Both the position numbers and the translations under genes were made by a program. From the NCBI GenBank assembly GCA_937975855.1, contig CALJTT010000003.1, positions 26,901 to 90,900 of the forward strand: 64,000 nt of DNA. The letters run 5' to 3'. The stretch's first letter is position 1. The number at the start of each line of letters is the position of its first letter. Origin of the DNA: Minisyncoccota bacterium (lineage in GTDB: Bacteria > Patescibacteriota > Minisyncoccia > Phycocordibacterales > UBA918). The notes below the pieces were generated by a model. It worked only from the letters and a program-made list of their open reading frames with translations, was not told the DNA's origin and ran no database searches. Positions 7,714 through 58,601 of this stretch are shown in pieces.

Positions 7714-7858
7714 AATGATAATTAAGTTAAACCTCCTAAGATTAATACTCTCACCTACACCAAGATACGCAAGAGTAATCAAACCTACGAAATTATTATA
7801 GAAATCAACGAGCGCGTTAGCCAAGCTAACAGAAGGAGCAATATGAATCGCGCCTATA

Positions 7859-11948: not shown

Positions 11949-11979
11949 GCGGAAGTGAGTATAATGAAATAACACTTAC

Positions 11980-12009
11980 ATTATAGCATTATTTTAACAA
12001 CAGAAGTAA
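11980..12009 (-). promoter_or_regulatory. Candidate gyrB promoter TTACTT-18 nt-TGCTATAAT
   Basis: Minus-strand TATAAT = 11985-11980 with TGC extension; TTACTT = 12009-12004. A second TATACT (11963-11958) lies 9 nt from the ATG. Confidence 0.4.
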
Positions 12010-12029
12010 TCCGAGCTTTATTTAAAAAC

Positions 12030-26652: not shown

Positions 26653-26706
26653 GGTTTAGTTAATTTATCTATACCTGGTAATAGTACCAAAAGCTGCGCC
26701 CGCACT

Positions 26707-26715
26707 TGTTATACT
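26707..26715 (+). promoter_or_regulatory. Extended -10 TGTTATACT, 8 nt upstream of ATG 26724 (leaderless candidate)
   Basis: TGT (26707-09) + TATACT (26710-15), then gggtgcat, then ATG. Confidence 0.45.
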
Positions 26716-26723
26716 GGGTGCAT

Positions 26724-27725
26724 ATGTCACAACAATACGATTTCGTTGCCATCGGCGACATCCTAATAGACGCCTTTATTCAACTTAATGAAGATCAAGC
26801 CACAGTTACTAAAGACGAAGAAACTGGACGAAAGACTCTTTCAATGGAGTTTGGTAGCAAGCTTCCCTACGACGATGTTGTAGTTGTACCAGCAGTTGGC
26901 AACTCACCAAACGCGGCTACGTCTGCTACTCGCCTAGGTCTAGAGACTGGTCTTGTTAGCCATATCGGAAACGACAAGTTCGGAAAAGAATGTCTACAGG
27001 CTCTACGCGATCGTGGCGTGCACACAGACTTTATTAAAATTCACGAAGACAAGAAGACAAACTACCACTACGTATTGCGATACGGACCAGAACGAACGAT
27101 CCTTATTAACCACGAACATTACCCATACGCATTGCCAGACTTCCCGGTTGCACCGAAGTTCTTCTACTTCTCTTCTGTAGGTGAGCACGGCATCCCGTAC
27201 CACCACGAAATTGCCGAGTACGTAAAGAACAACGAGACCAAGCTCGCCTTCCAGCCTGGAACCTTCCAGATCAAAGTTGGAGTTGATGCAATCCGAGACA
27301 TATACGAAAACTCAGAAATCTTCTTCTGCAACAAAGAAGAGGCACAAGAAATTCTTAAAACAAAAGAACAAGACATCCCAACCCTCGTACGTATGGTGCG
27401 AGAACTTGGGCCCACTATCCCAGTTGTAACCGACGGTCCTGGTGGAGCATTCACAGTTGATGCAGACGACCAAGCATGGCACATGCCAATGTACCCGGAT
27501 CCAGCTGCCCCGGTAGACCGAACTGGTGCCGGGGATGCATTCTCTTCAACTTTCACTTCAGCAATCATCCTAGGGAAAGATCCTGCTGAAGCACTATCAT
27601 GGGGACCAATCAACTCTATGAGTGTTGTGCAGCACATCGGCGCCCAAGAAGGACTCCTACCAATGGACGCCCTCCAAAAATTCCTAGCCGATCGACCCGA
27701 CGACTACGTACCGAGTAAGGTGTAG
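26724..27725 (+). CDS. PfkB-family carbohydrate kinase
   Basis: N-terminus DFVAIGDILIDAF and the C-terminal signature DRTGAGDAFSSTF. Start at ATG 26724 (MSQQYD...). Confidence 0.85.
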   Translation: MSQQYDFVAIGDILIDAFIQLNEDQATVTKDEETGRKTLSMEFGSKLPYDDVVVVPAVGNSPNAATSATRLGLETGLVSHIGNDKFGKECLQALRDRGVHTDFIKIHEDKKTNYHYVLRYGPERTILINHEHYPYALPDFPVAPKFFYFSSVGEHGIPYHHEIAEYVKNNETKLAFQPGTFQIKVGVDAIRDIYENSEIFFCNKEEAQEILKTKEQDIPTLVRMVRELGPTIPVVTDGPGGAFTVDADDQAWHMPMYPDPAAPVDRTGAGDAFSSTFTSAIILGKDPAEALSWGPINSMSVVQHIGAQEGLLPMDALQKFLADRPDDYVPSKV

Positions 27726-27744
27726 GAATTCTCTCACTAACAGA

Positions 27745-27785
27745 AAAACGCCCCACGTTTTCACGAAGGGCGTTTTTTTTATTTT
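27745..27785. terminator. Bidirectional terminator (PfkB kinase / LpxC-like gene)
   Basis: AAAAACGCCC ... GGGCGTTTTTTTT, with T-runs readable on both strands. Confidence 0.6.
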
Positions 27786-27805
27786 TTAGAACGATCATAG
27801 GCGCG

Positions 27806-28615
27806 CTAGCCTGAACTGTTCGCGTGAACAAGGAGTTGCTCATTCGCAACCCTTCCCACAAGTTGCATATCCGTCGGATGTCCAGCAAACGCCGTCTCGA
27901 TCGATCCGCCCAACTGCGCGCCAGCCGGTCTGAGGTATTCGATAGCACCAAGTAAATCCAGAGCGCGATGTAGCGCCAGTTCCTTCAGTACAGCTCGCAG
28001 CCCTTCTTCGGTTCGAGCACGACGTAGCCAGACATGCTGATCGACAACACCATGCCATCTTGCATATGGCCACAACCACAACCTACCCATAGAACGGGCC
28101 GTTGCAATTCGCCTCAGATCATCGTTGCTTTCTAAAGAAACGCGAACTGTAATGCGTTCAGTTTTTGGATATTGAACCGAAACTGAGATGTTCAGTGGCT
28201 CAGATCCCGGTGTCCAAGTCAGAGTTTTTCTGCCCTCCAAAAAAGAGACTTTTTCAGAGACGGTGTAAACAGGCATATCTCGATTCTGCTCCAAAACGCT
28301 CTCTAAAGAGTCCCAGTGCAGCACTCCACCGTTTTCATAGGGCAATCCGTTTTTGCCGACCTCGATTTCAACACCTGACGCTCGGAGCAAATGCAATACG
28401 CCAAAGAGATGTTCAGGAATCAGCACACGGCGATTGCGGTCTCTGACATAGAGAGATCGAAACAGAAGACTAAAACACCCCATCTTCAGCGTATCCAGAC
28501 TCACACTGGCGTCACCACAACGCCACCAGACGCCGGGCGTTTCTACCCGACGTAAAGTAACTTTTGCTTGCATCCCCCAGTGGTTTCTACCAACAATTTC
28601 AGCAATTAACGTCAT
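27806..28615 (-). CDS. LpxC-family (UDP-3-O-acyl-GlcNAc deacetylase-like) metalloenzyme homolog
   Basis: Aligns by eye with E. coli LpxC landmarks: IPEHLFGVL (E78-H79), ARSMGRL (ARTFGFM), LHRALDLLGA (H238...D242), AGHPTD (H265). 269 aa. Preceded by GGAG 8 nt upstream of the ATG. Confidence 0.65.
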   Translation of the reverse strand: MTLIAEIVGRNHWGMQAKVTLRRVETPGVWWRCGDASVSLDTLKMGCFSLLFRSLYVRDRNRRVLIPEHLFGVLHLLRASGVEIEVGKNGLPYENGGVLHWDSLESVLEQNRDMPVYTVSEKVSFLEGRKTLTWTPGSEPLNISVSVQYPKTERITVRVSLESNDDLRRIATARSMGRLWLWPYARWHGVVDQHVWLRRARTEEGLRAVLKELALHRALDLLGAIEYLRPAGAQLGGSIETAFAGHPTDMQLVGRVANEQLLVHANSSG

Positions 28616-28719
28616 ATGACGATCTCCCTCTTCCAGATTTTACGCTCTAAAGGAAACACTAACAACTTAATTTAAAATTGCAACAGAAACGCCTAGCTTC
28701 TTTATATATTAAAAAAATA

Positions 28720-28756
28720 AAGATAAAAGAAAAACCCCCGCACGTATGCACGGGAG
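28720..28756 (-). terminator. Probable terminator after the 28783-29907 gene
   Basis: Minus-strand imperfect GC hairpin CCCGUGCAUACGUGCGGG followed by UUUUUCUUUUAUCUUUAUUUUUUU. Confidence 0.45.
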
Positions 28757-28782
28757 CTTTTTGAAGCAGATACTTTACTCCG

Positions 28783-29907
28783 TTATTTGGCGAAAAACGC
28801 TTGTACTTGTCGCTTTTCACCTTGAGGGCAGTAGTACAAAGCCGAATTGCGATCGTAGATCATGTGAGTGACCGCTTCCGTTGGCGTGAGCAACGGGAAA
28901 CCCAGACTTGGATTTATGTCCGCCGGCGAGGGATCGGATCTGTACGAAACCCGCAATGTACCTGATGGTGTTGTTGCGAGATTGACATTGTGCCCGTTGC
29001 ACGGAACAGTCACTGAAGGATAGGCCACAGTTCGTGCAGCCTGACCGTAGGTTGCCGCTGGCGCCGGTGTGTAAACCGAAGCTTGGGCAGATGGTCGGAC
29101 TCCCCAGACGGCTGCCTGCTGCTGGGCACCCTGCCAACTTGCAGTCGGCTGAGCGGGAGCATGAGCCGCCGCGGACGTGCCATAGTCGTACGTCGTTCCA
29201 AATCCTGCAGATGATACTGTCGGGATTGCAGCGGCGTAAGAGTTGGTAGCAGCGTAAGTCGGCGACGCCGACTGGTAGGTTGGCGTTGCGTAGGTGTAAG
29301 TCTGACTCGCCGGAGGCTTGCTGACATAAGAAACGGCTTGCCCAGCGCTGTAAGCCGAAGCTGACGTTCCGGAAGTCACCGAGTACGTAGGCTGAGCATA
29401 CGCGATACGGGCTGGTGGTGGCGCGGGCACGTACGCTGACTGCGACGGTGCCGAGGTCCACACTGGCGCTGCCGCGACGGTGTTACTGCGTTGAACAACC
29501 TGCGCGTTACTGGACCGCGTCAGGTGACCAGTCTCAACAACTCCGTTTACTCGTGTTACGCGTACTGGGTACGCATAATCTGCAGTCCCGACGTAAACCG
29601 GAACGATGGAGTATCCCCAGTAAGAATCGACTCGGTGTGAATCCCAGACGCCATTGGCGCGTTGGGTTTCAAGCGAATTAACACGCGCGCCGCCGGAAAT
29701 CGATACGTTGACAATTTGCGTAGACTGCTCGACGAGCCTTGAACCGTTACCAGACCAGCTGGCCGTCGGTGCAGCACGCTCTGCTTTTTCGCAGGCTTGC
29801 CAATCAGAATCGCTTGCAGAAGCCAAGCCCGAAAACCCGACAGCCGAAAATAATCCGATTGCGATAGAAAGAACTCCCGAACGAATCCGGGTAAGAACAT
29901 AATTCAT
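28783..29907 (-). CDS. Secreted Ala/Pro/Ser/Thr/Tyr-rich protein of unknown function
   Basis: Start at ATG 29907, preceded by AAGGAG at 8 nt and by TTGACT-17-TTTAAT. Signal peptide MNYVLTRIRSGVLSIAIGLFSAVGFSGLASA. Long low-complexity middle and a Cys-containing C-terminal domain. About 60% GC in sampled lines. Confidence 0.7.
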   Translation of the reverse strand: MNYVLTRIRSGVLSIAIGLFSAVGFSGLASASDSDWQACEKAERAAPTASWSGNGSRLVEQSTQIVNVSISGGARVNSLETQRANGVWDSHRVDSYWGYSIVPVYVGTADYAYPVRVTRVNGVVETGHLTRSSNAQVVQRSNTVAAAPVWTSAPSQSAYVPAPPPARIAYAQPTYSVTSGTSASAYSAGQAVSYVSKPPASQTYTYATPTYQSASPTYAATNSYAAAIPTVSSAGFGTTYDYGTSAAAHAPAQPTASWQGAQQQAAVWGVRPSAQASVYTPAPAATYGQAARTVAYPSVTVPCNGHNVNLATTPSGTLRVSYRSDPSPADINPSLGFPLLTPTEAVTHMIYDRNSALYYCPQGEKRQVQAFFAK

Positions 29908-29992
29908 GGTAGTCACTCCTTCAAATTTTGGCGAAACGCCGTGACCCTACTATTAAAGACCGTGAACTGTAATAAGTCAACCTGTTTTGGTT

Positions 29993-30589
29993 CTATTTGT
30001 AGACACAGACTTCCCCTGTTCCATTCAATCTCACAACATCCTTCGCGGCCTCGTGGGCGGAATTTCCTTCACCGAAATAAATGTCGATCAATAGTGACTC
30101 GTCGTGGCCGTTGGTAACGCCAATTGTGTCGGTGATTTTATATAAATTGCCAGTTGGGCCGCCGACCCGCAGCAGCGTACCTGGCGCTAGTGTATTGGAA
30201 GCGGCGGTGCCGGGTCGATCTGGAAAGTTGGGGTCGTACGCAACCAGACATTCGCCATGCGCGTCTAGTGGGCATGGCAGGTTGATGTGTACGTTTACCT
30301 TCCCGTCGCCATCGCTATCCCACAAACCGATAACGCCAAAGCGCTCGGTGATACCCATCCATTGCACTACAAACAACCGCAGGAAGTCGAAAGGCAAAAT
30401 ATCCCCCGCTGCTTTTACATAGTCTGTGTCGATCGGTGTGAAGTAGCCGGTCAAAGTCGCTGGCCTGATCTCGCAGCTGTTGGCCTGTACACTTGTAGTT
30501 GTGACATACACAGCTACCGCGACTGAAAAAGCCACGCCCACGTATAACATCCATCGTGTTTGTATCTGCTGCATAAAGTTAGAGTGCAT
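29993..30589 (-). CDS. Secreted 3D-domain (MltA/RlpA-like double-psi beta-barrel) protein
   Basis: N-terminal TM/signal, then VAYDPNFPDRPGT...LYKITDTIGVTNGHDESLLIDIYFGEGNSAHEAAKD, which matches the three-Asp 3D-domain pattern. Start uncertain (30589 or 30574). Confidence 0.6.
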   Translation of the reverse strand: MHSNFMQQIQTRWMLYVGVAFSVAVAVYVTTTSVQANSCEIRPATLTGYFTPIDTDYVKAAGDILPFDFLRLFVVQWMGITERFGVIGLWDSDGDGKVNVHINLPCPLDAHGECLVAYDPNFPDRPGTAASNTLAPGTLLRVGGPTGNLYKITDTIGVTNGHDESLLIDIYFGEGNSAHEAAKDVVRLNGTGEVCVYK

Positions 30590-32432
30590 CAGTCGAGGTC
30601 GCCAGCGTTAGTTCGGGTTCAACTGCTTCTTCTGTCGCAGGCACCTCTATCGGGTCTAGTTCTATTAAAACTTCATCATTAACTTTTTCCTCCAACTCTC
30701 GCTCCTCAATAGCCTCACCCAAGCTGGTCGTTTGGTCGACACCCATAAGTTCAATCATCTCTAGAGAGAAGCGTGGCTGCGGCTGGCTAGCCACAACCGT
30801 TTGAGATGTAGTAGTTGCAACGGGCTCTGAAGTACTGGCGAGCGATTGTGTGTCGACAGGCAGAGTCGTTAAAGCTGTGGTGGTTGCAAACATAGCTTCG
30901 ACCAGCGTCGTGGTTGCCACTACAAATGCATCTATGGGCGAAGTAGTCGTACCGTTGGCAGCATCAACCGATTTAACTTCTTCTGTTGTGGAAGCGGTTG
31001 TGGTGACGATCTTTTGTGATGTTGTGCTGACGAACGCCAAAACTCGCTCGTCGGGATTTTCAATAAAATTGATCAGCCCAGCATCAAGCTCCGGTCTTTC
31101 TCCGATGGTGTAAATAGAGGTTCCAAGTATTCCTGCAGCTTCCGCGTAGTTTCGAGATCGCTCAAATGATTCTGGGTAGTGACCCCAATCGTCCACCTCG
31201 CGTTCGCTGTCGAGCCAACCAATTCCCACCATGACGCGATCGGCAATGTCTGGCGCCATCTGCTGCCAAGCATCGACTTCCCGTTCCCAAATACCTTGGG
31301 TCGAGCTGTATTGCATGACGTGAATAACGTCGAGCAAATCACGTCTCAGCCAGGTCGTTGGATCTTGCTGGTAATGAAACGAGGTAGCGTCGAAAACTAG
31401 ACGAGGACTGTATGTTGCCTGGGTTCGCATTTCGTATATTTCAGTTTTACTATCCTCAATCGGAGTTGTAATGAACGGGTTGTCGGGAGTCGCCTCGTAC
31501 CACTCACGGAACCACTGTGGCGTCTCACCTTCCCAAGTTACCTCTGTTGTAGTGGCATTCAGATCACCCCAGCGCCCGCCAGCATAGCTGTACAGCAATG
31601 GAAAGACGGCCGCTGACAATTGATAGTCTTTGCTGGTAGACGCACTGACAGAATCAATCGCTGTCGAGATAATCTCAACTGTGTCTGTGATGCAGGCGGT
31701 CTTTTCTTCATCTGCCATTTCCCAACCAGGGAAACGAATATAGTCGAGTTCGATCCCAGCAAGCTGAGGATAGAGCTCCAGTACGGCTGTTACCCATGTC
31801 TGCTGCGCCTCACGTTCTTCTTCCTCGCACAGGTCAACCCAGATGGCTTCTTCAACCCACTGGTCTTCTGTCAATCTTTTTCCGTTGACGATCCAGGCAT
31901 GGACGTCGACATCCTCGGACGAGAACAAGTCGAGGGCAGCTGCAAAGTCATTATGGTTTCCTACTCCTCCACCGATCAACTCGCCAGACTCGTCGAACAT
32001 CGCTGGGAAGCGCAGATAGACTTCGGTTAGACCAAGTGCCTTGGCGGTTTCAAAAGTTTCGGCCAAAGGTGAGTTTGGATCAAGACTGTCCGTAGTCGAC
32101 GCCGTTGTAGACGCGGCGGTAGTGGAACTGGTGCTAGTAGATGCTGTCAGCGAGCCTGTCTCTGTCGTGGTCGCAATATTTAAATCTTGCTCAACACTAG
32201 ATGTCGCAGTCGAAGTAGCTACAGCTAAACTGGTGGTCGACACCTCTGACACTGTCGAGGTAGCGAAGGATGCGGTTGTGGTCGCAGTAGTACTTGAATA
32301 TTCTGTGATCACAACTACCTCGGGCACAGTCGACGCAATAGCCGTCGCCTCCAGCCACGCACCGCGTTCAGCTGCAAATAATTGCACTGGTAACAAAACA
32401 AAGAATAATAGAGTGGGTAATGTGTATTTCAT
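30579..32432 (-). CDS. Secreted Ser/Thr-rich protein with a putative glycoside-hydrolase-like TIM barrel (DUF4015/GHL-like)
   Basis: Signal peptide MKYTLPTLLFFVLLPVQLFA and T/S-rich linkers at both ends. The core has LAGIELDYIRFPGW, typical of the GHL/DUF4015 family. Confidence 0.5.
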   Translation of the reverse strand: MKYTLPTLLFFVLLPVQLFAAERGAWLEATAIASTVPEVVVITEYSSTTATTTASFATSTVSEVSTTSLAVATSTATSSVEQDLNIATTTETGSLTASTSTSSTTAASTTASTTDSLDPNSPLAETFETAKALGLTEVYLRFPAMFDESGELIGGGVGNHNDFAAALDLFSSEDVDVHAWIVNGKRLTEDQWVEEAIWVDLCEEEEREAQQTWVTAVLELYPQLAGIELDYIRFPGWEMADEEKTACITDTVEIISTAIDSVSASTSKDYQLSAAVFPLLYSYAGGRWGDLNATTTEVTWEGETPQWFREWYEATPDNPFITTPIEDSKTEIYEMRTQATYSPRLVFDATSFHYQQDPTTWLRRDLLDVIHVMQYSSTQGIWEREVDAWQQMAPDIADRVMVGIGWLDSEREVDDWGHYPESFERSRNYAEAAGILGTSIYTIGERPELDAGLINFIENPDERVLAFVSTTSQKIVTTTASTTEEVKSVDAANGTTTSPIDAFVVATTTLVEAMFATTTALTTLPVDTQSLASTSEPVATTTSQTVVASQPQPRFSLEMIELMGVDQTTSLGEAIEERELEEKVNDEVLIELDPIEVPATEEAVEPELTLATSTDAL

Positions 32433-32474
32433 CGTACTGCGCTGATGTCGTTCTGAATAAATCTTCTACGAGAG

Positions 32475-32505
32475 AAAATGCCCTTACCTTTTAATAATAA
32501 GGCAT
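32475..32505 (-). terminator. Probable terminator after the pentose-phosphate/glycolysis operon
   Basis: Minus-strand ATGCCTTA...TAAGGGCAT hairpin (one bulge) followed by TTTTCTCTC. Confidence 0.45.
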
Positions 32506-32537
32506 GGATAACAATATAATTGGTCTGCTGTGGAGAA

Positions 32538-33527
32538 TTACTCTACTACCCGCTTGCCGGCTGCGACGATACTGTCGACACCCATGCCGTAGTGTTTAAC
32601 CAATTCGTCTGGTTCTCCTGATTGACCGAACTGGTCGTCAACACCGATACGTGCGATGCGAGTTGGGTTGATCTCGGCGAGAGCTTCACACACTGCGCTA
32701 CCCATACCACCAGCGATCTGATGTTCTTCAACTGTTACCAAAGCGTCGTGTTCGGCGGCAAACACATCGAGAGCTTGTACGTCTAGCGGTTTGATAGTTG
32801 CCAAGTGCAGCACTGACACGCCGATTCCTTGTGTCTGCAGTTCGTGCGCGGCCATTAGTGAGTTGTATAAAAGTGAGCCGGTAGAAATGATTCCGACCTT
32901 TTTCTCTAAAGATTCATCACGGCTGAACATGCGCTGTGCTTTACCAATTTCAAATGGCGTGTCTTTGGTAGTGACAACTGGCGTTGCACTCCTACCTAGT
33001 CGGAAGTAAACCGGCCCTTCGTACTCTGCTGCAGCCAGAGTCACTTTCCTAGCCTCTTCGGCATCTGCTGGCGCCAGTACTACCATGTTTGGAACAACCC
33101 GCATGATGGCAATATCCTCGATTGCCTGATGAGTTGCTCCATCAGGACCAACTGAAACACCAGCATGAGCACCAACAATTTTTACATTAGCGTCGTTGTA
33201 AGCAACTGTGGTACGGATCTGCTCCCAGTTGCGCCCAGGCGAAAACATCGCATAAGAAGAGATGAAGGGAATCTTCCCCATCGCTGACATACCAGAAGCA
33301 ACGGAGGCAAGATTTTGCTCAGCTACGCCAATCTGCACAAACCGGTTGGGGAATTTCTCAGCAAAGTGATGCGTGCGCGTTGACTCGGTCAAATCGCAAC
33401 AAAGGGCGACCACGTTTTTGTCGCGCTTGCCAGCCTCTAGGAGACCTTCGCCATACCCGTTTCGGGTGGGAGATTTTTCTACTTCTCCCCCAGTTCTTAT
33501 TGCTTCGTGAATGTGGTCTGCAAACAT
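32538..33527 (-). CDS. tkt: Transketolase, C-terminal (pyrimidine-binding) subunit
   Basis: RNGYGEGLLEAG..., FVQIGVAEQNLASVASGMS, GPDGATHQAIEDIA. Confidence 0.9.
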   Translation of the reverse strand: MFADHIHEAIRTGGEVEKSPTRNGYGEGLLEAGKRDKNVVALCCDLTESTRTHHFAEKFPNRFVQIGVAEQNLASVASGMSAMGKIPFISSYAMFSPGRNWEQIRTTVAYNDANVKIVGAHAGVSVGPDGATHQAIEDIAIMRVVPNMVVLAPADAEEARKVTLAAAEYEGPVYFRLGRSATPVVTTKDTPFEIGKAQRMFSRDESLEKKVGIISTGSLLYNSLMAAHELQTQGIGVSVLHLATIKPLDVQALDVFAAEHDALVTVEEHQIAGGMGSAVCEALAEINPTRIARIGVDDQFGQSGEPDELVKHYGMGVDSIVAAGKRVVE

Positions 33528-36659: not shown

Positions 36660-38294
36660 TTATGTGGCAGGGTTGTTATCCTCATCTTCGTCTCGATCTC
36701 TCTTGTAAAACAAGTACCAAAGAGACGCCAACGTTATAAATGGAACTAGAAGTAAGAGAGCCCACATCCAATACGCTGCTTGCCAATACCATTTCGCCAA
36801 GGTTGAACTGGTAGCGTTTGCCTCTCCATAGAAATTCACTGGTGTCTCGTAGCGACTGGCAACACGGGCGTCGTAGTCAAACACCTCAACTACGATAGCT
36901 GAAGGGCCAGCAAACATGATCGGGGCGATGGTTGCTTCGTACGCTTGTCGATCACTACTTTCACGTAGCAAAAACGAAAACGTATAACCTGAACCGCGCG
37001 GGTCGTAAATTGTGGCTACAATAGATTTGAATTGGCCGTCGATGGCTTCAATTGGCAACGAGATCGTAAACGGCTGGGTGCTGTCGAGCTCTAGTTCCTT
37101 GTTTGAAAATGCCCAAGTATCGTCTGTCTGAGTTACCGTAAAATCTCTGAGCCGAGGAAAACCTTCGTTTTCAAGAGTGCCTAACTGGGGCTGGTTTTCT
37201 TCTGTGGTTATAGTGACTCCTCCTCGACCGTCTTGAGTTGACGATTCACCTTGTCCCGCCGACGCTCCTGTAGAGCCGGCAAAACCACCTCTCGCGGCTG
37301 ACCTATCAACAACCGCTACTGCCCCAGAAGAAATCTGACCGTTCGGGTTGATCACAAATACTGAATAATAAACACGCGACCATTCGAGCAAAACGTTTTC
37401 GTCTCGAACTGTCTCTTGTCGCCCTTCATAGATAACAACGCCGTCATTTATGGATTGTGGGTAGCCAAAGTAATTACGCACTACGCGAACTGTCGCTCCA
37501 GGAAAAATGTCAGCCGGCAGTTCATAAGTTATGATGACATCATCTCCTTCCGGCGTGGCATTCAAGCGACTGACATTAGCTGGTGCAAAAGGAACCGAGT
37601 CATCCAGAGTTACAAAGGACCCTCGCTCCAGAACCGTCTGACCACCAGAGGGTGTGTAGCCTATAACTTCGTAATAATATTGCGTGGCAGGACTCAGATC
37701 ATCGAGCCAAACTGAGTGATCGGTTTTGTATTCGTTGCCAACAATATATGCAATCTCATAAGAACTGGTAAGGCCGATTCGCACTTCCACCTGAACGTTA
37801 CTATTTGTCTCCAGATTCAAAGCGGCGGTAGTAGTTCCAGGTATAACAACACTTGATTCCAAAATTACTCTAGCCTGAGTTGCTTCTCCGATACTCGGCT
37901 CAGGATCTGGTGGTATAAAAATATCAAGTGTAGACGTTGCTTCAGGCAAGGACAATATCGAATAGTTAGGAAACCCATCAAAAGCCGCCACTTCATAAAA
38001 ATAAGTCGTGGACGCCGACAGGCCGGTGTCGTTGTATGCTGTGGCCGTAGTGGTGGCAATAGCGAACCCGTCGCGGAAAACCACATAACCAAACACACCA
38101 AAGTTATCAGTCGAGGTCGACCAAGCAAGATTGATCTGGCTACTAGATACTGGCGTGATATTTTCGATAACTGGTGATGACGGGTCGATAGAATCAGTCG
38201 CGCCAAAGACTTTTATAGTAAAGTCGCTGGTTCCTTGCGCCCCAACCAACTGCGGCAGTAATAATATTAAAAATAGTGAAGCGAGTCTGATCAT
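36660..38294 (-). CDS. Secreted FN3-repeat protein with a C-terminal TM anchor
   Basis: Signal peptide MIRLASLFLILLLPQLVGA and three FN3-like modules (e.g. SSQINLAWSTSTDNFGVFGYVVFRDG...YFYEVAAFD). C-terminal helix WALLLLVPFITLASLWYLF + KRDRDEDED. ATGA overlap with the upstream gene. Confidence 0.75.
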   Translation of the reverse strand: MIRLASLFLILLLPQLVGAQGTSDFTIKVFGATDSIDPSSPVIENITPVSSSQINLAWSTSTDNFGVFGYVVFRDGFAIATTTATAYNDTGLSASTTYFYEVAAFDGFPNYSILSLPEATSTLDIFIPPDPEPSIGEATQARVILESSVVIPGTTTAALNLETNSNVQVEVRIGLTSSYEIAYIVGNEYKTDHSVWLDDLSPATQYYYEVIGYTPSGGQTVLERGSFVTLDDSVPFAPANVSRLNATPEGDDVIITYELPADIFPGATVRVVRNYFGYPQSINDGVVIYEGRQETVRDENVLLEWSRVYYSVFVINPNGQISSGAVAVVDRSAARGGFAGSTGASAGQGESSTQDGRGGVTITTEENQPQLGTLENEGFPRLRDFTVTQTDDTWAFSNKELELDSTQPFTISLPIEAIDGQFKSIVATIYDPRGSGYTFSFLLRESSDRQAYEATIAPIMFAGPSAIVVEVFDYDARVASRYETPVNFYGEANATSSTLAKWYWQAAYWMWALLLLVPFITLASLWYLFYKRDRDEDEDNNPAT

Positions 38295-39058
38295 AGCGGC
38301 AGTGCAGTTACAGTTGTCGTAGCATAATAAACGCCAGTCTCAACATTTGCTCCGCTGGAAATACCCACCCTAAAATGCACTGAAGTTGTCGCTCCTAGGG
38401 GATGATTAGATCCAACACCGCGAGCGATCTCAGTTGCACTAGTAGTCAGTCCAGTCCAGCAAGCAAACGCAGTGTCTCCAGTTCCGACACCACAGCTGGC
38501 GCCGTTGTCCTTATAAGCGCTGGCGATGTCGTCGCCCTCGGGAGTAAAGCCAAACTCGGCTGTCGCTGCCGGGACTGAGAACGTGAAGTCTGCACTACCG
38601 ACCTCTGTGTAGTCGGCAATAGAAGCACCGTCCGTTCGCTGCATCGCTGGATCATTTTCCGCTTCGATAGTCAGTTGATACCCGGCTGGGCTGTCGGTCA
38701 CAACTGTAAAGGTCGTAGAACCATTTGATGTACCGCCAGTTATTCCTGGCAAGTCTACATCCATCACAATCGGACCGCCCCCAGCTAGACTTAAAAAAAC
38801 TTCTTGCATTTGTTGGTAGCCTGCTTTTAGAGAAAAGTTCGTACTATCCGACGGACCGGTTGCGATCTCACCCACAGTGCTTTCTTGCACATACGAGGCA
38901 GAGTTGGAGAGTCCGCCGCCGACATTAATACTGTCGCTTTGCAATTGGTAATTATTACTACTGCGCACTTGTGCGTGCGACACAGAAAAACTACTTACCA
39001 ATAAAATTGTCACAACAAGACTGATACATGTTGTTGTAATAGCAAACGATAATCTCAT
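38291..39058 (-). CDS. Secreted beta-rich protein, paralog A of the locus (WxL-protein-like layout but no WxL motif)
   Basis: Signal peptide ...SFSVSHA|Q. Segments shared with the 244-aa paralog: GITGGTSNGSTTFTVVTDSPAGYQLTI, a C-x10-CW loop (CGVGTGDTAFACW), GATTSVHFRV...YYATTTVTALPL. Confidence 0.65.
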   Translation of the reverse strand: MRLSFAITTTCISLVVTILLVSSFSVSHAQVRSSNNYQLQSDSINVGGGLSNSASYVQESTVGEIATGPSDSTNFSLKAGYQQMQEVFLSLAGGGPIVMDVDLPGITGGTSNGSTTFTVVTDSPAGYQLTIEAENDPAMQRTDGASIADYTEVGSADFTFSVPAATAEFGFTPEGDDIASAYKDNGASCGVGTGDTAFACWTGLTTSATEIARGVGSNHPLGATTSVHFRVGISSGANVETGVYYATTTVTALPL

Positions 39059-39061
39059 GCG

Positions 39062-40051
39062 TTAGGCTTTTCGTTTAAATTCAAATGTTTTGAGGAACAA
39101 CCTGATCAAAAATACAACCATGAACACTACTCCAAAAATAAGTAACAGCAGTTTCCAAGGTAGCACCCAGAAAGTAACCTCTACAGTATCCAGTATATCA
39201 TCGTAGCCGCGGTTGACTGTCGCTTTGGCTGTGTAGCGTCCAAATAAAAATTCTCGATCCCAGGTTACTTCACGAGTACGGATGGACTGCGGCAGAACAA
39301 ACCACGGTTCCATTTCAACTCGACCGACCTCTTCACCAAAGACGTTGGCGATGGTTAGTTCTCCGTATGGGTTCACATGGATAGTACCGGTGTTTTCATA
39401 AGCGATAGCTAGTTTAATCGGCCCCGACTGGTACCACCATTGACTAGGTAAAGTTGAAAGGTCGATTGTTTCACCACTTCTACTTATATCTCCTTCTACA
39501 GTAAGAAAAACGTGTGAACCTACGCGGGCGATGATTGGATTGCGCGGCGCGACTTCATTTCCATCTTCACCCAATTGAACAGTTGATACCAATACACTAC
39601 CGTAGTAACCACCAGGCTCGGCGTCTGGAGGAACAGTAATGGTTACTGGGATGCGAGCACGCTCGCCAAGGTTCAAAGTAAAAGTGTCCTCAGGAAACGA
39701 AACGTAATCACGAATACTGTATGGTCCACGCTCTCCCTCGATGACTTGCAGCGCTGCGCTACCGTCGGCCGTACCAGAAATATCTTCTACCTGAAGTTTG
39801 AAAATTCGCTGCTCACTGATTCGGTTAGTAACCGTAACCTCGCGCACCATACTCTCGCCGGGCTTGAGAGAGACCTCTGCCCTACCAGGTCCGACTACAA
39901 AATCACCCACGTCAATTCGGCCAGAAATAGTTTCTGTGACATACCAAGGGTCTACAACCACGGGAGTAGTCAAAGGTTCATCCGTTTGTGCAAATACAAA
40001 AAATGGAGAAAAGGCTAGGAGTAATGTCGGCCAAACTCTCTTTGCGATCAT
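39062..40051 (-). CDS. Two-domain surface protein with a C-terminal TM anchor (DUF916/DUF3324-like, inferred)
   Basis: Signal peptide MIAKRVWPTLLLAFSPFFVFA and two beta-sandwich-like halves (GRAEVSLKPGESMVREVTVTN...; ARVGSHVFLTVEG...YENTGTIHVNPYGE). C-terminal WKLLLLIFGVVFMVVFLIRLF + KTFEFKRKA. The size and layout are those of WxL-cluster CscA-type proteins. Confidence 0.5.
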   Translation of the reverse strand: MIAKRVWPTLLLAFSPFFVFAQTDEPLTTPVVVDPWYVTETISGRIDVGDFVVGPGRAEVSLKPGESMVREVTVTNRISEQRIFKLQVEDISGTADGSAALQVIEGERGPYSIRDYVSFPEDTFTLNLGERARIPVTITVPPDAEPGGYYGSVLVSTVQLGEDGNEVAPRNPIIARVGSHVFLTVEGDISRSGETIDLSTLPSQWWYQSGPIKLAIAYENTGTIHVNPYGELTIANVFGEEVGRVEMEPWFVLPQSIRTREVTWDREFLFGRYTAKATVNRGYDDILDTVEVTFWVLPWKLLLLIFGVVFMVVFLIRLFLKTFEFKRKA

Positions 40052-40066
40052 ATCAACAAGGATACG

Positions 40067-40801
40067 CTAGAGGTTGTAGAGTGACAAGGTCGCTGTAGCC
40101 GTGTAAGTCTCAGCCACAGGTGTTGGCGTAGCTCCACTTGGCACAGTTACATTGAACTGGACTGAAGAAGTTGCTCCAGTGACAGCAGCGCTACTTCGTT
40201 CAACAATTCGAAAGGCAGCCGTATCTGGCGCTTTCCAACATGGGACCGTCTGTATTCCGCCGGTGTTACAGTCAGATCCGTCGTTTAGGAAAGACTGGTC
40301 TGTATCAAGCGTGCTGGACGAAGTTACTGTGTAAGCAAGCTGTGCAGAGGCACTAGTAGTGTAACCAAATGACGGTTCACCAGTAACGTCTCCCTCATAG
40401 TCGACAATAGCTTCACTTGCTGACACGTCTCCGATCATAGCTTCCGTCGTTCCGTTGTTAAAAAAGGCAATGTCAACATAGTATCCAGCGCCGTTGTTGG
40501 TTAGTACTACAAACTGAGTAGTCCCAGTAGCCTGTCCACCTGTAACACCACCAATGTCTCCAGTCATCGTTACGTCTGCCGGTTCTACCAAGAACGAGCT
40601 TTCAGCTGTGATAGTTTGTCGAATGATGAACTCTGAAGTGTCTTCCTGACTACGAGTAATTTGTGGCTCTAATATACTAAATAAAACTGCAAATCCAACT
40701 AGTGCACCGAAAGCAACGACGGTTGCATTTTGGGCAGCTGGGGTAATGTATGTGGCTTTCATACTACGTATAGTATCAGCTTTGGGGTTGACTTTACTCA
40801 T
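40067..40801 (-). CDS. Secreted/anchored beta-rich protein, paralog B of the locus
   Basis: N-terminal hydrophobic segment VVAFGALVGFAVLFSIL, GVTGGQATGTTQFVVLTNNGAGYYVDI, a C-x11-CW loop (CNTGGIQTVPCW), GATSSVQFNV...YTATATLSLYNL. Confidence 0.65.
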   Translation of the reverse strand: MSKVNPKADTIRSMKATYITPAAQNATVVAFGALVGFAVLFSILEPQITRSQEDTSEFIIRQTITAESSFLVEPADVTMTGDIGGVTGGQATGTTQFVVLTNNGAGYYVDIAFFNNGTTEAMIGDVSASEAIVDYEGDVTGEPSFGYTTSASAQLAYTVTSSSTLDTDQSFLNDGSDCNTGGIQTVPCWKAPDTAAFRIVERSSAAVTGATSSVQFNVTVPSGATPTPVAETYTATATLSLYNL

Positions 40802-40824
40802 ATGGAAGGGCTTGTTGGGGATAA

Positions 40825-43800
40825 TTAAACTGTTTCTTCCTCTACTATTTCGTCAGTTTCAACCGGTATTTCAGACTCTGATTCAACCAAATTTTCTTCC
40901 GGGACATTCTCGTCTATGACAACCTCTTCGTCAGAACTTTCAGCTGGAGACAGGGCTTCTTCTATGAGTGTCTCTGGTAACACTGATGCCGTAGTGGTCG
41001 CCTCTCCTTCAATCTCTTCAGGCATATTGACAACTACAGGATCCTCTTCGGCTTGTGTGTCAGTATTACTGGCGCTAATTGTAGCTGGTTCAGAGTCGAC
41101 TTCCTCAGCGATCACTCCCAACCCTTCCTCTTCACTTTCTATAACCGGCTCTGGGTCTTCTCCTATGACCGTAGGTGCACTTACACTTGTACCTAACTGC
41201 GACTCAATCGCCTCAAGGCGTGATCGCAAATCTTTGTTTTCTTTCTCTAACAAGTCCACCCTTTCTGTATTCCCCGTCACCACCTCCCACATCTCCCGCA
41301 ACGCCTCTAGGATGTAGAACGGTAGCGAACGGAAGTCCACCTGGCGGTACCCATCATTGTTGCGAGACACTAGTTCTGGGAACTGTTCTTCCACGTCTTG
41401 GGCGATTAAACCTGTGACTACACTAGCCTGACTCTTTTTGTACGTGTCGGCTGCTAGTTCGTTCCACTGGTATGTGACAGGGTCTAGGGCGACCAGACGT
41501 TCGATGTAGCTGCGGCCGTCGCTAGAGAGCGGGTCGATGTTCGTCTTTAGACGTTCGTCTGAGGTACAGGTTCCCCCGATATTTCCTCCAGCGAAGTCTT
41601 CGATGCAGCCGTTGGTACCGCTATTTCCGACACGGATATCTCCGTATACTTGAAGTTTTTGGGCGGGGGTGGTGGTGCCGATACCGATGTTGCCGGTAAT
41701 CAGATCTCCAAAGATAGCATCAGCAATATTCAACTGATGAGAAGCGGTAGGTGAAGTAGCCTCGACAGAGTAACCAATCAAAACATTGTCAGAACCAGTC
41801 TTGTGATTTCTACCTGCTTGGTGACCAATGAAAATATTATTGTCAGCACCAGTTTCTAGAGATAGGCCTGACTGATAACCAAAAGCTGTAAGATTTGCAA
41901 CTTCAGCACCAACTACCGCACCTCTACCAGTCTGGTATCCAAACACTGTAGCAGCAGTAGACGTCGAAATATTCCTAAGTGTATTGTAGCCAAAAGCAGA
42001 TACAAAGTTACTTGTGTTTTGGTATGCACTATTACGGCCAAAGGCAGAAACAGAGCTGCCTGTGTTTTCGAAGGCGCTATTTTGACCAAAAGCGGATACA
42101 AAGTCACCTTTGTTTTGGTATGCACTATTACGGCCAAAGGCAGAAACAGAGCTGCCTGTGTTTTGGTATGCACTAACTGTTCCAAATGCTGAAAGGCTGT
42201 CTCCTAAATTTTGGTAACCGGCCTCGGATCCTACAACCGTGATTTGATCACTCACAGTAGTAGAACCAGATTCATATCCAGCAAAGTATCCTAGCGCTAC
42301 ATTGTCCAAGCCTGTACCATTAAAAGAATTCCCTGCACTTACCCCCAAAGCGAGAGAATCAGAAGTCACGTTATAAATACCATCAGTCAGGTCATCTACA
42401 GACAGAGTCTCCGACAGAGCGCTACTGGCGTCAGTCCATTCTACACCAGAGCCATTTGACGAGAACAACTGCCCGACAGTACCAGCACTATAGGCATTGT
42501 CGTAAAGAGAGCCGGTCAGCATAGCATTCCCGTCGACAGTTAGTTTAGTGAAGGGAGTGGTGGTGCCGATGCCGATGTTGCCGGAAGAATCAATCGTCAA
42601 ACGTTCAATTGAATTTGTCCATAGTGAAAAATCATCGTCAGAATGGTTGTAGGCAAGTCTACCACGACTAGAGTTTTCTATATCACCAAAATAAATACTT
42701 CCCACAGCAGAGTTTCCGGACAAAATAGTCATACCAGCGTTTCCAGTTTGATCAATCAAAAAATCATCAGCAGAATTTGACGGATCTCTGCCTGTGGGAG
42801 AATTTTGTGTCTGGATATGAAGACCTGCAGCTGGACTACTTGTTCCAATCCCCACAAACCCCGTACTAAGATCACTAAAGAGAACGTTACCAATATTAAG
42901 CTCCTCCGAGGCTATGGGTGAAGAAGTCTCCGCGCTGTAACCAATCAAGATGTTGTCACTACCTGTAGTAACATTTTTTCCAGCCTCAAAACCAATAAAG
43001 AGATTATTGTCAGCGCCGGTCTGCAGGCTTCGTCCAGCACGGTAACCAAAAGCTGTAAGATTTGCCACTTCCGCCCCACCTAGGTCACCTTGCCCGGCCT
43101 GATAACCAAATACAGTAGCTGCCGTGGAAGTAGATATGTATCGAAGAGTACTGTGTCCGAAAGCAGAAACTCCAGTACCTACGTTTTTATAGGCACTGTT
43201 TACACCAACAGCAGTGAGAGCAGTGCCTGTATTATTAAAGGCGCTGTTTACTCCCATAGCCGTAAGACCATTTCCCCTATTACCTTCTCCAGCATTTACC
43301 CCCATAGCGGTGAGTGAGCCCCCCGTATTTGAAACAGCAGCGTTTACACCGATAGCAGTTGCGTTATCTCCTTTGTTAGAAAAAAGAGAGTTATATCCCA
43401 TAGCTGTATTGTCAGCGCCGGTGTTTTCGTACCCAGCCTGATATCCGATCAGCGTAATCCGATCTGAGTCAGTGGTACTTCCAGATTCAAAGCCAGCCTG
43501 GTATCCAATAGCGATGTTACCGAGGCCAGCTGCATTAAACGCGTTCCCAGCGTCCTCTCCCAGAGCTAGTGAGTCACTCGTACCGTTGTACAGCCCATCG
43601 GAGAGGTCATTGATTGCTAGCACGCCGGATAACGCCGCGTTAGCATCCACCCAATCAATGCCGGCCCCAGTGCTAGAAAGGAGCTGACCGTTAGTACCAG
43701 CGCTGTATGCGTTGTCATAGAGACCCCCAGTGAACATGGCGTCACCGGCGACGGTTAGTTTGGTGAAGGGGGTGGTGGTGCCGATTCCGATGTTGCCAGT

Positions 43801-45417
43801 ACTCAAATTACCGAAAATAGCATCTCCAATATTGAGCTGATTAGAGCCGGTGTTATTTGGAGCCTCAACATCGTAGCCAATAAGTATATTGTTTGAGCCA
43901 GTCGTTAAGGAGTCACCCACCCTGTACCCTAAAAAAAGGTTACTAGAACCAGTAGTCAGGTTTTCGCCTGCGTAAGCCCCCAAACCCGTGTTGCCGGAGC
44001 TTGACGTACTCAGATAAAAAACTGATGAACCGATCGCTGTGTTATTTGAACCCTCCTCATTGCCAGATAGTGCAATGAAACCAACCGCAGTGTTGTCAAA
44101 TCCAGTAGTATTGTTGGCGAGTGATCCTGATCCAAAAGCGGTCAAATCGTAACCTGTGGTGTTAAAACTAAAGACATTGTCAGTTAAGCCAAAATTACCA
44201 GCCCCTGAGTCATTGTGTAAAATTGGAGTCCCGTTTTGGGTAATTAAGACATGACTGGTGGTAGCTAAATTTAATTGACCACCTACCGACAAGATATCAC
44301 CATCAAACGTCAAATCAGCCGAATCAGTCAGTGCTGTCGCTCCACTGTTTGTGAAAGTAATCCGGTTAGCTGTGAACGAACTTTGGCTGTCGGTAAGAGA
44401 TAAGAAAGTTGACGCTCCCCCAATCCCAAGCGTACTAGTCGCCACCCACTCAAGACCAGAGCCGGTAGTCTGCAAGACCTGGCCGTTGGTGCCGCGAGTA
44501 TAGTTGTTGTCGTATATACCGGCAGCGAACAGAGCGTCCCCATCGACAGTGAGAGTATACAAGGGGGAGGTGGTGGATAGACCAATATTGCCATTTTGTC
44601 TTATGTATAGGGAAGAAGACAAACCATCTGGTCGAAAGAAGTTTGTATTCCCATCGTCTTCAAAAAGAACGACACCAGCCCCATCTCGTTGAAGTCTGAG
44701 GCCGGGCGTATTTGCTTCAAATGTCCATTTTTCACCACCTAGGGCTGTATTTTGAAGGGTTAAGTCTGGAGAGGCGCCAGCTACGTGTAGCATACTAGCT
44801 GGCGAACTCGTTCCAATCCCTACATTTCCCCCATCTGTTACCGTAAATACTTTGGTTCCGCTATCCAATAGACTAAGAATGTCTCCCGTACCTGACTGGT
44901 TGATAGTAAGTAGTGTCGATGACTCGGTAGCTGTCATAACATCCGCCTGGTCTGAGCGTAAAAAAGACGAAGACGCGATACCGTCTAATAATACACTGTC
45001 GTTTGCGGTCTGAGCCACAAATGCTGCCGGCACTGTGCCGAGAATCTTTCGCGGCGTCATTTCCCCGTCACTATCGATGTTTACACCCAGGTACAACGTC
45101 TGGTCAAAGTCTACACTCGTAAACGCCGTAGTCGATCCCAGCATGACCGAGAACAGACCGTTTACTACCGGTACCTGATTTGCACCAACGAGAGTTTCCG
45201 TCCAAATAGCAGACCCACCAGAGGCAGCGGTATACAGCCTGAACTCCATGTCGTAACTGCCGTTTGCGACAGCCACACCGGTCGAGTCAGTTAGCTTCCC
45301 TTGATAGTTGATCTGCGGATTCGCCTGCGCAAATACTGTAAGCGCAACAAAAAACAACGACAGTCCAAACGCACACATGGCATATTTTATGAAAACTGAT
45401 GTGTATGATTTACTCAT
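40825..45417 (-). CDS. Giant tail-fibre-like surface protein with a C-terminal S74-type intramolecular chaperone domain
   Basis: Start at ATG 45417 (MSKSYTSVFIKYAMCAFGLSLFFVALTVFAQA), 8-nt overlap with the upstream gene. Four copies of GNIGIGTT(S/T)P..KL.V.GD. Repeated NTA(I/M)G-type short beta-repeats. SDERLKTNIDPL...GLIAQDVEEQFPELV...VDFRSLPFYILEALREM matches the phage tail-spike/endosialidase chaperone (Peptidase_S74) pattern. Then a coiled coil and an about 150-aa acidic tail. Confidence 0.8.
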   Translation of the reverse strand: MSKSYTSVFIKYAMCAFGLSLFFVALTVFAQANPQINYQGKLTDSTGVAVANGSYDMEFRLYTAASGGSAIWTETLVGANQVPVVNGLFSVMLGSTTAFTSVDFDQTLYLGVNIDSDGEMTPRKILGTVPAAFVAQTANDSVLLDGIASSSFLRSDQADVMTATESSTLLTINQSGTGDILSLLDSGTKVFTVTDGGNVGIGTSSPASMLHVAGASPDLTLQNTALGGEKWTFEANTPGLRLQRDGAGVVLFEDDGNTNFFRPDGLSSSLYIRQNGNIGLSTTSPLYTLTVDGDALFAAGIYDNNYTRGTNGQVLQTTGSGLEWVATSTLGIGGASTFLSLTDSQSSFTANRITFTNSGATALTDSADLTFDGDILSVGGQLNLATTSHVLITQNGTPILHNDSGAGNFGLTDNVFSFNTTGYDLTAFGSGSLANNTTGFDNTAVGFIALSGNEEGSNNTAIGSSVFYLSTSSSGNTGLGAYAGENLTTGSSNLFLGYRVGDSLTTGSNNILIGYDVEAPNNTGSNQLNIGDAIFGNLSTGNIGIGTTTPFTKLTVAGDAMFTGGLYDNAYSAGTNGQLLSSTGAGIDWVDANAALSGVLAINDLSDGLYNGTSDSLALGEDAGNAFNAAGLGNIAIGYQAGFESGSTTDSDRITLIGYQAGYENTGADNTAMGYNSLFSNKGDNATAIGVNAAVSNTGGSLTAMGVNAGEGNRGNGLTAMGVNSAFNNTGTALTAVGVNSAYKNVGTGVSAFGHSTLRYISTSTAATVFGYQAGQGDLGGAEVANLTAFGYRAGRSLQTGADNNLFIGFEAGKNVTTGSDNILIGYSAETSSPIASEELNIGNVLFSDLSTGFVGIGTSSPAAGLHIQTQNSPTGRDPSNSADDFLIDQTGNAGMTILSGNSAVGSIYFGDIENSSRGRLAYNHSDDDFSLWTNSIERLTIDSSGNIGIGTTTPFTKLTVDGNAMLTGSLYDNAYSAGTVGQLFSSNGSGVEWTDASSALSETLSVDDLTDGIYNVTSDSLALGVSAGNSFNGTGLDNVALGYFAGYESGSTTVSDQITVVGSEAGYQNLGDSLSAFGTVSAYQNTGSSVSAFGRNSAYQNKGDFVSAFGQNSAFENTGSSVSAFGRNSAYQNTSNFVSAFGYNTLRNISTSTAATVFGYQTGRGAVVGAEVANLTAFGYQSGLSLETGADNNIFIGHQAGRNHKTGSDNVLIGYSVEATSPTASHQLNIADAIFGDLITGNIGIGTTTPAQKLQVYGDIRVGNSGTNGCIEDFAGGNIGGTCTSDERLKTNIDPLSSDGRSYIERLVALDPVTYQWNELAADTYKKSQASVVTGLIAQDVEEQFPELVSRNNDGYRQVDFRSLPFYILEALREMWEVVTGNTERVDLLEKENKDLRSRLEAIESQLGTSVSAPTVIGEDPEPVIESEEEGLGVIAEEVDSEPATISASNTDTQAEEDPVVVNMPEEIEGEATTTASVLPETLIEEALSPAESSDEEVVIDENVPEENLVESESEIPVETDEIVEEETV
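41960..42200 (-). repeat. In-frame 48-nt (16-aa) tandem repeats with a 54-nt block duplicated exactly at 96-nt spacing
   Basis: 42011-42064 is identical to 42107-42160. Encodes VSAFG(R/Q)NSA(Y/F)(Q/E)N(T/K)G.. units. A diverged block of the same 16-aa unit lies at about 43200-43400. Confidence 0.85.
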
Positions 45418-58540: not shown

Positions 58541-58561
58541 AAAAAATAAAATAACTTATAC

Positions 58562-58580: not shown

Positions 58581-58601
58581 AGTAATTCACACTCACAAAT
58601 C

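Follow-up and report, generated by a model that had tools for sequence, protein, structure and literature searches.

Between the convergent genes pfkB and tktC, the 64-kb stretch of Minisyncoccota DNA analysed here (the window; contig CALJTT010000003.1, positions 26,901–90,900) carries four genes that raise the question of where they came from and whether they arrived together. One encodes a homologue of the zinc deacetylase LpxC, one an orphan secreted protein (APY374), and the other two the proteins p198 and T617. An initial annotation had described the first three as a horizontally acquired or compositionally distinct envelope-remodelling cassette. We instead favour, with a probability of roughly 65%, a layered set of accessory genes from a Patescibacteria pool, gathered at a hotspot in a genome of leaderless type, in which the newest two genes are led by Shine–Dalgarno (SD) sites and one of these encodes an LpxC-fold deacetylase homologue. 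As a genomic feature the region is an ordinary accessory islet; the part worth following is the LpxC-fold family and its SD-led status against a leaderless background.

The pfkB–tktC junction is a gene-content hotspot

A synteny scan with PfkB as the query, taking one genome per GTDB species, returned 80 loci at 65–91% identity, and a convergent tktC follows pfkB in every one of them. No relative of the LpxC-like gene, APY374, p198 or T617 was found in these 80 sister loci at E ≤ 1e-5. Across 73 sister species the two flanking genes are separated by a median of 169 nt, versus 4812 nt here, the largest gap seen, and 20 of the 73 carry inserts of 0.6–2.5 kb with unrelated cargo at the same junction. 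The sister cargo includes a type IV pilin-like gene in 12 loci (L007, L010, L029, L030, L037, L038, L041, L045, L053, L057, L059 and L068) as well as PurM-like, PurN-like, dehydrogenase-like and peptidase-like genes. Given the long gap here and the unrelated inserts in the sisters, the pfkB–tktC junction is a hotspot of gene content, and the inserted genes show one mark of a genomic island, absence from the syntenic site in related genomes. Horizontal acquisition, as initially proposed, is in this respect supported by synteny. L041 carries two of the pilin-like genes, and most of these genes share an N-terminal GFTLIELLVVIAIIG motif.

The layering of the insert becomes visible in the three closest relatives found (L092–L094, the contigs that carry p198 homologues), whose PfkB, GAPDH and TktC are 91–92%, 83–87% and 83% identical to those of the window. 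L092 and L093 have the order tktC, T617 homologue (43–48% identical), p198 homologue, a terminator-containing spacer of 69 nt, and pfkB. APY374 and the LpxC-like gene are absent from all three relatives and unique to the window genome, where they fill the ~2.27 kb that separate the stop codons of p198 (29993) and pfkB (27725). T617 and p198 thus read as an older, SD-less and translationally coupled pair of the sub-lineage, to which APY374 and the LpxC-like gene would be a later addition. The unit as first drawn does not stand: the insertion reaches 32537 and includes T617, p198 belongs to the older layer, and only the two SD-bearing genes are new. In L094, p198 is followed by two more genes, a 325-residue paralogue of the T617 central domain (10646–11623) and a 131-residue secreted protein (11754–12149), which are preceded by SD-like GAGGGA and GGGAG, respectively; they echo the window's pattern of SD-carrying newcomers.

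The features of the locus are as follows.

26706–27725, plus strand: pfkB, convergent to the LpxC-like gene; left flank of the insertion
27744–27787, both strands: bidirectional intrinsic terminator common to pfkB (plus) and the LpxC-like gene (minus), inverted repeat 27744–27758/27763–27777 flanked by an A-run and a T-run
27806–28615, minus strand: LpxC-like zinc-deacetylase homologue, 269 residues, without a signal peptide (from Pfam, PDB, fold and family alignment)
28630–28624, minus strand: SD site GAGGGAG of the LpxC-like gene, 8 nt before ATG 28615
28665–28637, minus strand: promoter-like TTGTTA-17-TAAAAT of the LpxC-like gene (consensus scan; upstream part 28616–28665)
28720–28761, minus strand: strong intrinsic terminator 3′ of APY374, 14-bp stem 28761–28730 with a T-run (terminator scan)
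28783–29907, minus strand: APY374, orphan secreted protein, 374 residues (from translation, composition and gene signals)
29921–29916, minus strand: SD site AAGGAG of APY374, 8 nt before ATG 29907 (upstream part 29908–29980)
29980–29952, minus strand: possible APY374 promoter read from the sequence, TTGACT (29980–29975), 17-nt spacer, TTTAAT (29957–29952)
29993–30589, minus strand: p198, small secreted or membrane-anchored protein; likely start 30574 or 30550, giving 193 or 185 residues
30579–32432, minus strand: T617, secreted Thr-rich protein of 617 residues with a signal peptide, outside the segment first annotated
32469–32505, minus strand: hairpin and T-run downstream of tktC, found by eye, arms ATGCCCTTA/TAAGGCAT with one bulge, then TTTTCTCTC; not listed by the terminator scan
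32538–33527, minus strand: tktC; right flank of the insertion

The bidirectional terminator that had been proposed as the left boundary is present as described, and the terminator scan places it on the minus strand at 27768–27751. On the right, the hairpin at 32469–32505 is likely the terminator of the tkt operon and the edge of the inserted block. The terminator after APY374 lies 22 nt past its stop codon and sets the LpxC-like gene apart as a transcription unit of its own, whose leader would be ~14 nt long if transcription starts ~7 nt past the −10 box. The promoter initially read upstream of APY374 has its hexamers and spacing in place but is weak: its −10 element lacks the conserved A at position 2, which is why the consensus scan missed it. 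No terminator lies in the 85-nt spacer between p198 and APY374, so read-through from T617–p198 is also possible. A permissive Rfam search of 27600–32600 for riboswitches or known RNAs in the leaders gave a chance-level match only. The terminators after the LpxC-like gene (27738–27753) and APY374 (28724–28739) match at 14 of 16 nt (TAACAGAAAAACGCCC/TAAAAGAAAAACCCCC), which probably reflects generic terminator composition or, less likely, a duplicated terminator module.

Alternatively, the block might have stood at this site from the common ancestor onwards, with repeated losses in the sisters, the SD sites then marking gene-specific regulation and not recent arrival. Its native-like composition (below), the age and diversity of the LpxC-like family across several Patescibacteria groups, and the LpxC-like gene held at a conserved position in L088 and L089 would all suit such a history. 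It would, however, require that all four genes went missing in 73 of 73 sister species that keep both flanking genes, and that the three closest relatives lost exactly the two distal ones. Unrelated inserts at the site in other lineages are what a gain hotspot would give, and the best relative of the LpxC-like protein is 41% identical, compared with 80–92% for counterparts of the flanking genes. We consider ancestral residence unlikely and gain at the hotspot the better account.

Amino-acid composition accounts for most of the GC bump

The initial annotation had reported a higher-GC segment from hand counts. The window has a mean GC content of 47.4%, and positions 29001–30000 are the richest 1 kb in the whole 64 kb (56.2%), so that the bump is real; its size had been overestimated, with 50.5% rather than 52–55% for the LpxC-like gene and 56.4–56.7% rather than ~60% for APY374. 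The two-gene stretch of 2.27 kb has a GC content of 51.7%, a value matched or exceeded by as many as 5.7% of sliding windows, and the dnaE and pheT regions reach 53–54%. For APY374 the GC contents of the three codon positions are 0.57, 0.59 and 0.53 (second position, 0.593), and the excess sits in the second position.

An expected GC content was computed for each gene from its amino-acid content, with synonymous codons used as in the remainder of the window. Expected versus observed values were 0.517 versus 0.506 for the LpxC-like gene, 0.539 versus 0.567 for APY374 and 0.490 versus 0.519 for p198. Synonymous-codon χ2 per degree of freedom was 1.09 for the LpxC-like gene, 1.44 for APY374, 1.39 for p198 and 1.10 for T617, against a window mean of 1.55. 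The z-scores of third-position GC (GC3) were −0.6, +3.2 and +3.1 for the LpxC-like gene, APY374 and p198, to be read against a between-gene standard deviation of 2.7 and values of +7.8 for dnaE and +6.7 for pheT. The two-gene stretch has a dinucleotide δ* of 61.0 (median 60.7) and a tetranucleotide correlation of 0.64 (median 0.68), within range, and the whole 4.8-kb block is more typical in composition than most windows of the same size.

The bump is explained by the amino-acid composition of APY374, mainly its Ala, Pro, Ser and Thr codons. It is mostly an amino-acid effect and carries no signature of foreign DNA; the two-gene stretch lacks the atypical base composition or codon usage that serves as a mark of genomic islands. 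Once the amino-acid bias is counted, the proposed compositional distinctness disappears at every level checked (codons, GC3, dinucleotides and tetranucleotides), and the support for acquisition comes from synteny and not from composition. The segment illustrates that a GC bump seen by eye may have its whole cause in amino-acid content, and that synteny can nevertheless expose accessory DNA.

The two newest genes carry the only SD sites of the window

An SD site was defined as a purine-rich motif complementary to CCUCC lying 5–10 nt upstream of the start codon. Only two of the 49 genes in the window have one, the LpxC-like gene and APY374, with anti-SD duplex energies of −8.5 and −8.9 kcal/mol, respectively; every other motif match fell in internal codons or in spurious antisense open reading frames (ORFs). 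The initial observation that both sites lie 8 nt before their start codons and are rare elsewhere therefore holds, and these two genes are exactly the two that are unique to the window genome.

The remaining starts follow a different pattern. A box matching TATAAT at five or more of six positions (often TATACT) ends 4–13 nt before the start codon of 24 of the 49 genes, without an SD site; the same kind of box precedes 5 of 930 internal start codons (0.5%). Examples on the minus strand are the starts at 23238, 25036, 49890, 52428, 56587 and 61091. Within operons, a gene usually overlaps the stop codon of the one before it or directly adjoins it. These motifs suggest that leaderless mRNAs are the default in the Paceibacteria lineage of the window; no paper on such a default in Paceibacteria was found in the literature searched.

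Leaderless-dominated initiation with an SD-led minority is known from Actinobacteria, Deinococcus and many archaea. The window resembles these systems in the −10 box directly upstream of about half of its genes, in the rarity of SD sites and in operon genes that overlap or abut stop codons. It differs from them in that the SD-led minority is enriched among accessory ORFs and includes one family that keeps its SD site across host genomes. Among 1445 ORFs from the window and the sister loci, 5.0% of the rare ORFs have SD-led starts, versus 0.9% of the core-family ORFs (Fisher p = 4e-4), a contrast that is indicative only, because the ORF calling was crude. The literature searched held no description of an SD-led accessory minority in Patescibacteria. 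A link between SD sites and accessory genes in a leaderless background would matter for gene calling and for the question of how foreign genes can come to be expressed.

The LpxC-like family makes this pattern clearest. A strong SD site precedes the LpxC-like gene in all eight contigs whose neighbouring genes look leaderless (the window, L084, L087, L088, L089, L090, L096 and L105), compared with 9 of 114 other ORFs in those loci (p = 2.5e-8). Examples from the family are GGGAGGA, GAGGGAGGAG, AAAGGAG, GAGGAGG and AAAGGAGGTG. Outside this set of eight, SD sites are present in L098 and L099, absent from L102 and ambiguous in L097 and L101. A TAAAAT hexamer precedes the SD site of the L087 homologue; the L084 homologue has its SD site at a similar spacing and no clear −10 hexamer. 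Because these LpxC-like genes carry SD sites on SD-poor contigs of the candidate phyla radiation (CPR) type, the SD leader is read as a family trait within Patescibacteria and not as the relic of a donor outside the CPR.

Such a donor had been a natural reading of the segment, namely that a three-gene envelope cassette was recently transferred from a higher-GC, SD-using organism outside the CPR and that both the SD sites and the GC content are donor relics. The highest 1-kb GC value of the window, the confinement of SD sites to two genes, the absence of the genes from all sister loci and the lack of relatives of APY374 would be expected under it. We nevertheless judge this transfer very improbable, since the codon, dinucleotide and tetranucleotide signatures match the background, the GC excess sits in codon position 2, p198 lies outside the new layer, and all close relatives of the LpxC-like gene with a readable context stand on SD-poor CPR-type contigs with an SD site of their own. 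A source within the Patescibacteria is preferred.

The LpxC-like protein belongs to a divergent family of LpxC fold

LpxC is the UDP-3-O-acyl-N-acetylglucosamine deacetylase that catalyses the committed step of lipid A synthesis in diderm bacteria. In the Escherichia coli enzyme the zinc ligands are His79, His238 and Asp242, and Glu78 and His265 are catalytic. The initial assignment of the 269-residue product as LpxC-like is borne out by domain, structure and alignment evidence. The protein matches Pfam PF03331 with E = 1.4e-12 and 48.1 bits (gathering score 27) over profile positions 16–266 of 268; against the NCBIfam lpxC equivalog TIGR00325 it reaches 25.4 bits, below the cut-off of 187.25. 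An AlphaFold2 (AF2) model built from 34 family sequences has a predicted local distance difference test score (pLDDT) of 92.5 and a predicted template modelling score of 0.91, and its predicted two-domain fold is that of LpxC. All of the top 50 PDB matches found with Foldseek are LpxC structures (E down to 3e-17) at template modelling (TM) scores of 0.70–0.76 and ~20% identity; the enzymes of Pseudomonas aeruginosa, Aquifex aeolicus and E. coli, with TM ~0.73, belong to the same length class.

The PDB alignment places Glu68-His69, His216, Asp220 and His246 on the corresponding A. aeolicus residues, and these five are invariant or nearly so in the alignment of 34 family sequences. The Glu-His pair, the His…Asp zinc ligands and the distal catalytic His are thus kept, in the motifs E68-H69, H216-R217-x-x-D220 and G-H246-x-x-D249. 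The full HKxxDxxGD signature, which includes Lys239 and Asp246 of the E. coli enzyme, is altered to HRALDLLGA (also written HRxLDLLGA), in which Arg replaces Lys and the second Asp is missing, whereas GHxxD contains a conserved Asp that is new. Given this divergence, the protein would be a member of the superfamily and not an LpxC orthologue. The retained metal-binding and acid–base residues indicate that it is probably an active metal-dependent N-deacetylase.

A word-index search with the protein returned only itself, and an exhaustive search of 1.84 billion representatives gave 100 matches, the best at 41% identity. About 88 of these 100 carry the HRxxDxxG(A) and GHxxD signature, and only 6 the canonical HK..D..GD. 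Where members are named, they belong to Paceibacterota and Falkowbacteria; IMG and NCBI label members as LpxC. The lpxC gene and the other genes for lipid A synthesis, lpxA, lpxD, lpxB and kdsA among them, were reported absent from CPR genomes (PMC5220378). Since its hosts are reported to lack lipid A genes, the enzyme probably acts on another molecule of the N-acetylglucosamine type, for example a precursor of an envelope glycoconjugate. This uncharacterised family of LpxC fold in organisms reported without lipid A also differs from LpxC in standing alone in varied neighbourhoods, and here in being an accessory gene. The database label probably misleads metabolic reconstructions, for example where lipopolysaccharide or an outer membrane is deduced for CPR bacteria.

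Several neighbourhoods of the family hint that it tends to sit in variable regions. A gene for a LAGLIDADG homing endonuclease-like protein directly follows the homologue in L084 (4931–5923), and IS200-type Y1 transposases lie 3–5 kb away in L089 (2287–2898) and L090 (1067–1741). A saccharopine dehydrogenase-like gene lies directly downstream in L097 (4687–6120) and L102 (4898–6049) and in none of the other loci, and may indicate a functional link, for example to amine or polyamine-type chemistry. Pilus ATPase genes are found near the homologues in L084 and L096. No conserved partner gene appears across the loci, the saccharopine dehydrogenase-like gene and the pilus genes being present in two loci each.

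A broader proposal can be made only tentatively and is rather doubtful. The Patescibacteria would harbour a large, old family of LpxC-fold deacetylases (HRxxDxxGA, GHxxD) that act on a substrate other than lipid A and are possibly a repurposed relic of an ancestral outer-membrane pathway. With an SD leader kept wherever the gene sits, the family might represent an SD-dependent expression class enriched in the mobile accessory pool.

The secreted proteins of the insert

APY374 had been described as an Ala/Pro/Tyr-rich protein with a signal peptide, and this description stands with Ser added (Ala 15.8%, Ser 12.6%, Pro 7.8% and Tyr 6.7%). A Sec-type signal peptide, with cleavage judged by eye to be likely after …GLASA, is followed by a globular N-terminal part, a nearly uncharged region of 152 residues composed of Ala, Ser, Thr, Pro, Tyr and Gln, and a Cys-containing C-terminal part. 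No tandem repeats and no Pfam or NCBIfam domain were detected, and a word-index search of 5.8 billion proteins returned APY374 alone. Gene callers predicted it in other assemblies, as the identical 374 residues in L001 and L002 and as a product cut by the contig end in L003.

It is conceivable that APY374 is no real protein and that the frame is an open frame in a GC-rich spacer or a young de novo gene, which would reduce the cassette to one acquired LpxC-like gene with non-coding DNA. The empty homologue search and the low-complexity central region would fit, as would overlapping ORFs of 214 and 105 residues in other frames. This too appears very unlikely in view of the SD site at ideal spacing, the canonical signal peptide, the strong terminator close behind the stop codon, the typical codon usage (χ2 per degree of freedom 1.44), a GC3 below the GC content of the second position, a frame of 374 codons and the identical sequence in independent assemblies. 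APY374 is accordingly treated here as a putative gene of the newer layer.

The start of p198 overlaps or abuts the T617 stop, a tight coupling without an SD site. It has four relatives of 183–185 residues at 67–75% identity, which follow the T617 homologue in L092–L094; an alignment scan of metagenomes gave nothing. The initial reading of p198 as a 3D-domain (MltA-like) protein found no support. No Pfam, NCBIfam or PDB-profile match was obtained for it, the AF2 model was unusable (pLDDT 38), and an hhalign comparison with E. coli MltA reached a probability of only 3% over 26 columns, pairing LIDIYFGEG…VCV with MltA residues 327–352. The C-terminus (TAASNTLAPGT…ITDTIG…LIDIYFGEG) resembles by eye the 3D domain of MltA-like lytic transglycosylases (PF06725), but p198 has Ser in place of the first Asp of the three.

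T617 has a conserved central domain that includes ELDYIRF, and homologues 43–48% identical stand at the same site in L092–L094; its family has no Pfam, NCBIfam or PDB-profile match. The DYIRFP motif may resemble TIM-barrel hydrolases of the GHL type, a tentative lead. APY374, p198 and T617 would be expected to act at the cell surface. The envelope-remodelling role proposed for the segment stays conjectural, its 3D-domain basis being unsupported.

A proposed stepwise assembly of the islet

The following sequence of events would account for these findings. The window belongs to a Paceibacteria-type CPR genome whose starts look leaderless by default, with a TATAAT-like box just before ATG and no SD site. 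The junction of pfkB with the tkt operon is a hotspot in the clade and would have been filled here in at least two steps. In the first, T617 and p198 would have arrived as the coupled, SD-less secreted pair common to the nearest relatives. In the second, APY374 and the cytoplasmic LpxC-fold homologue would have been placed between p198 and the pfkB terminator, the latter with its own promoter-like site, short SD leader and terminator, and APY374 with a weaker candidate for a promoter besides its SD site and terminator. A gene that begins 85–167 nt downstream of its neighbour could use neither a leaderless start nor stop–start coupling, so that an SD leader would be needed. Because the genes show no foreign compositional signature, whether by reason of their donor or of their residence time, they most likely came from the gene pool of the Patescibacteria.

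Islets at hotspots between convergent core genes, described as regions of genome plasticity, offer the closest parallel. Shared features are the fixed site, the cargo that varies between lineages and its strain- or species-specific character, here mostly of cell-surface proteins. The present islet differs in having no integrase, tRNA, repeats or compositional anomaly, in having been built, as it appears, gene by gene, and in that every added gene comes with its own SD site, terminator and promoter-like site, the last of these being clear in the LpxC-like gene and weak in APY374. The locus may serve as a worked example of a reduced CPR genome that gains surface genes singly at a fixed hotspot.

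Several points weigh against this account. The four inserted genes contain no Pfam mobility domain (integrase or transposase), no convincing direct or inverted repeats or att-like sites flank the borders, and no tRNA adjoins them (the sole tRNA of the window lies at 18.2 kb), so that no insertion mechanism is indicated. With native-like composition, gain is not formally separable from old residence with loss elsewhere. The coding status of APY374 is read from gene signals without a homologue. Leaderless transcription and SD use are deduced from motifs only, and neither the window nor the compared loci contain a 16S rRNA gene that would give the anti-SD sequence. Two residues of the LpxC motif are altered (Lys to Arg, second Asp to Ala), the inconsistent neighbourhoods of the family give no pathway clue, and, as 64 kb of the genome were seen, other lpx genes may lie elsewhere. 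A phage origin was also considered and rejected, as the LpxC-like protein had no tblastn match among 50,697 phage records.

Other deviant regions of the window

The gene that deviates most in the window is 5479–7824 on the minus strand, which encodes 781 residues without a Pfam match. Its GC3 is 0.33 (z −8.4), its codon χ2 per degree of freedom 5.3 and its dinucleotide δ* the highest of the window (~177). Foreign or fast-evolving DNA is more plausible here than in the segment flagged initially.

A low-GC trough (37–40%) at 58000–60000 spans two S-adenosylmethionine (SAM)-dependent methyltransferase genes, 58602–59351 (plus) and 59335–59982 (minus). The pair adjoins the gene at 59979–61091 and may be part of a variable surface-glycan locus. 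On the minus strand at 36660–45462 lies a run of five genes of secreted or surface type that the sister loci, as far as checked, also keep. One of the five encodes a protein of 1545 residues and another, at 39062–40051, a product that weakly matches the WxL-interacting peptidoglycan-binding domain. The dinucleotide signature is somewhat deviant near 40–40.5 kb.

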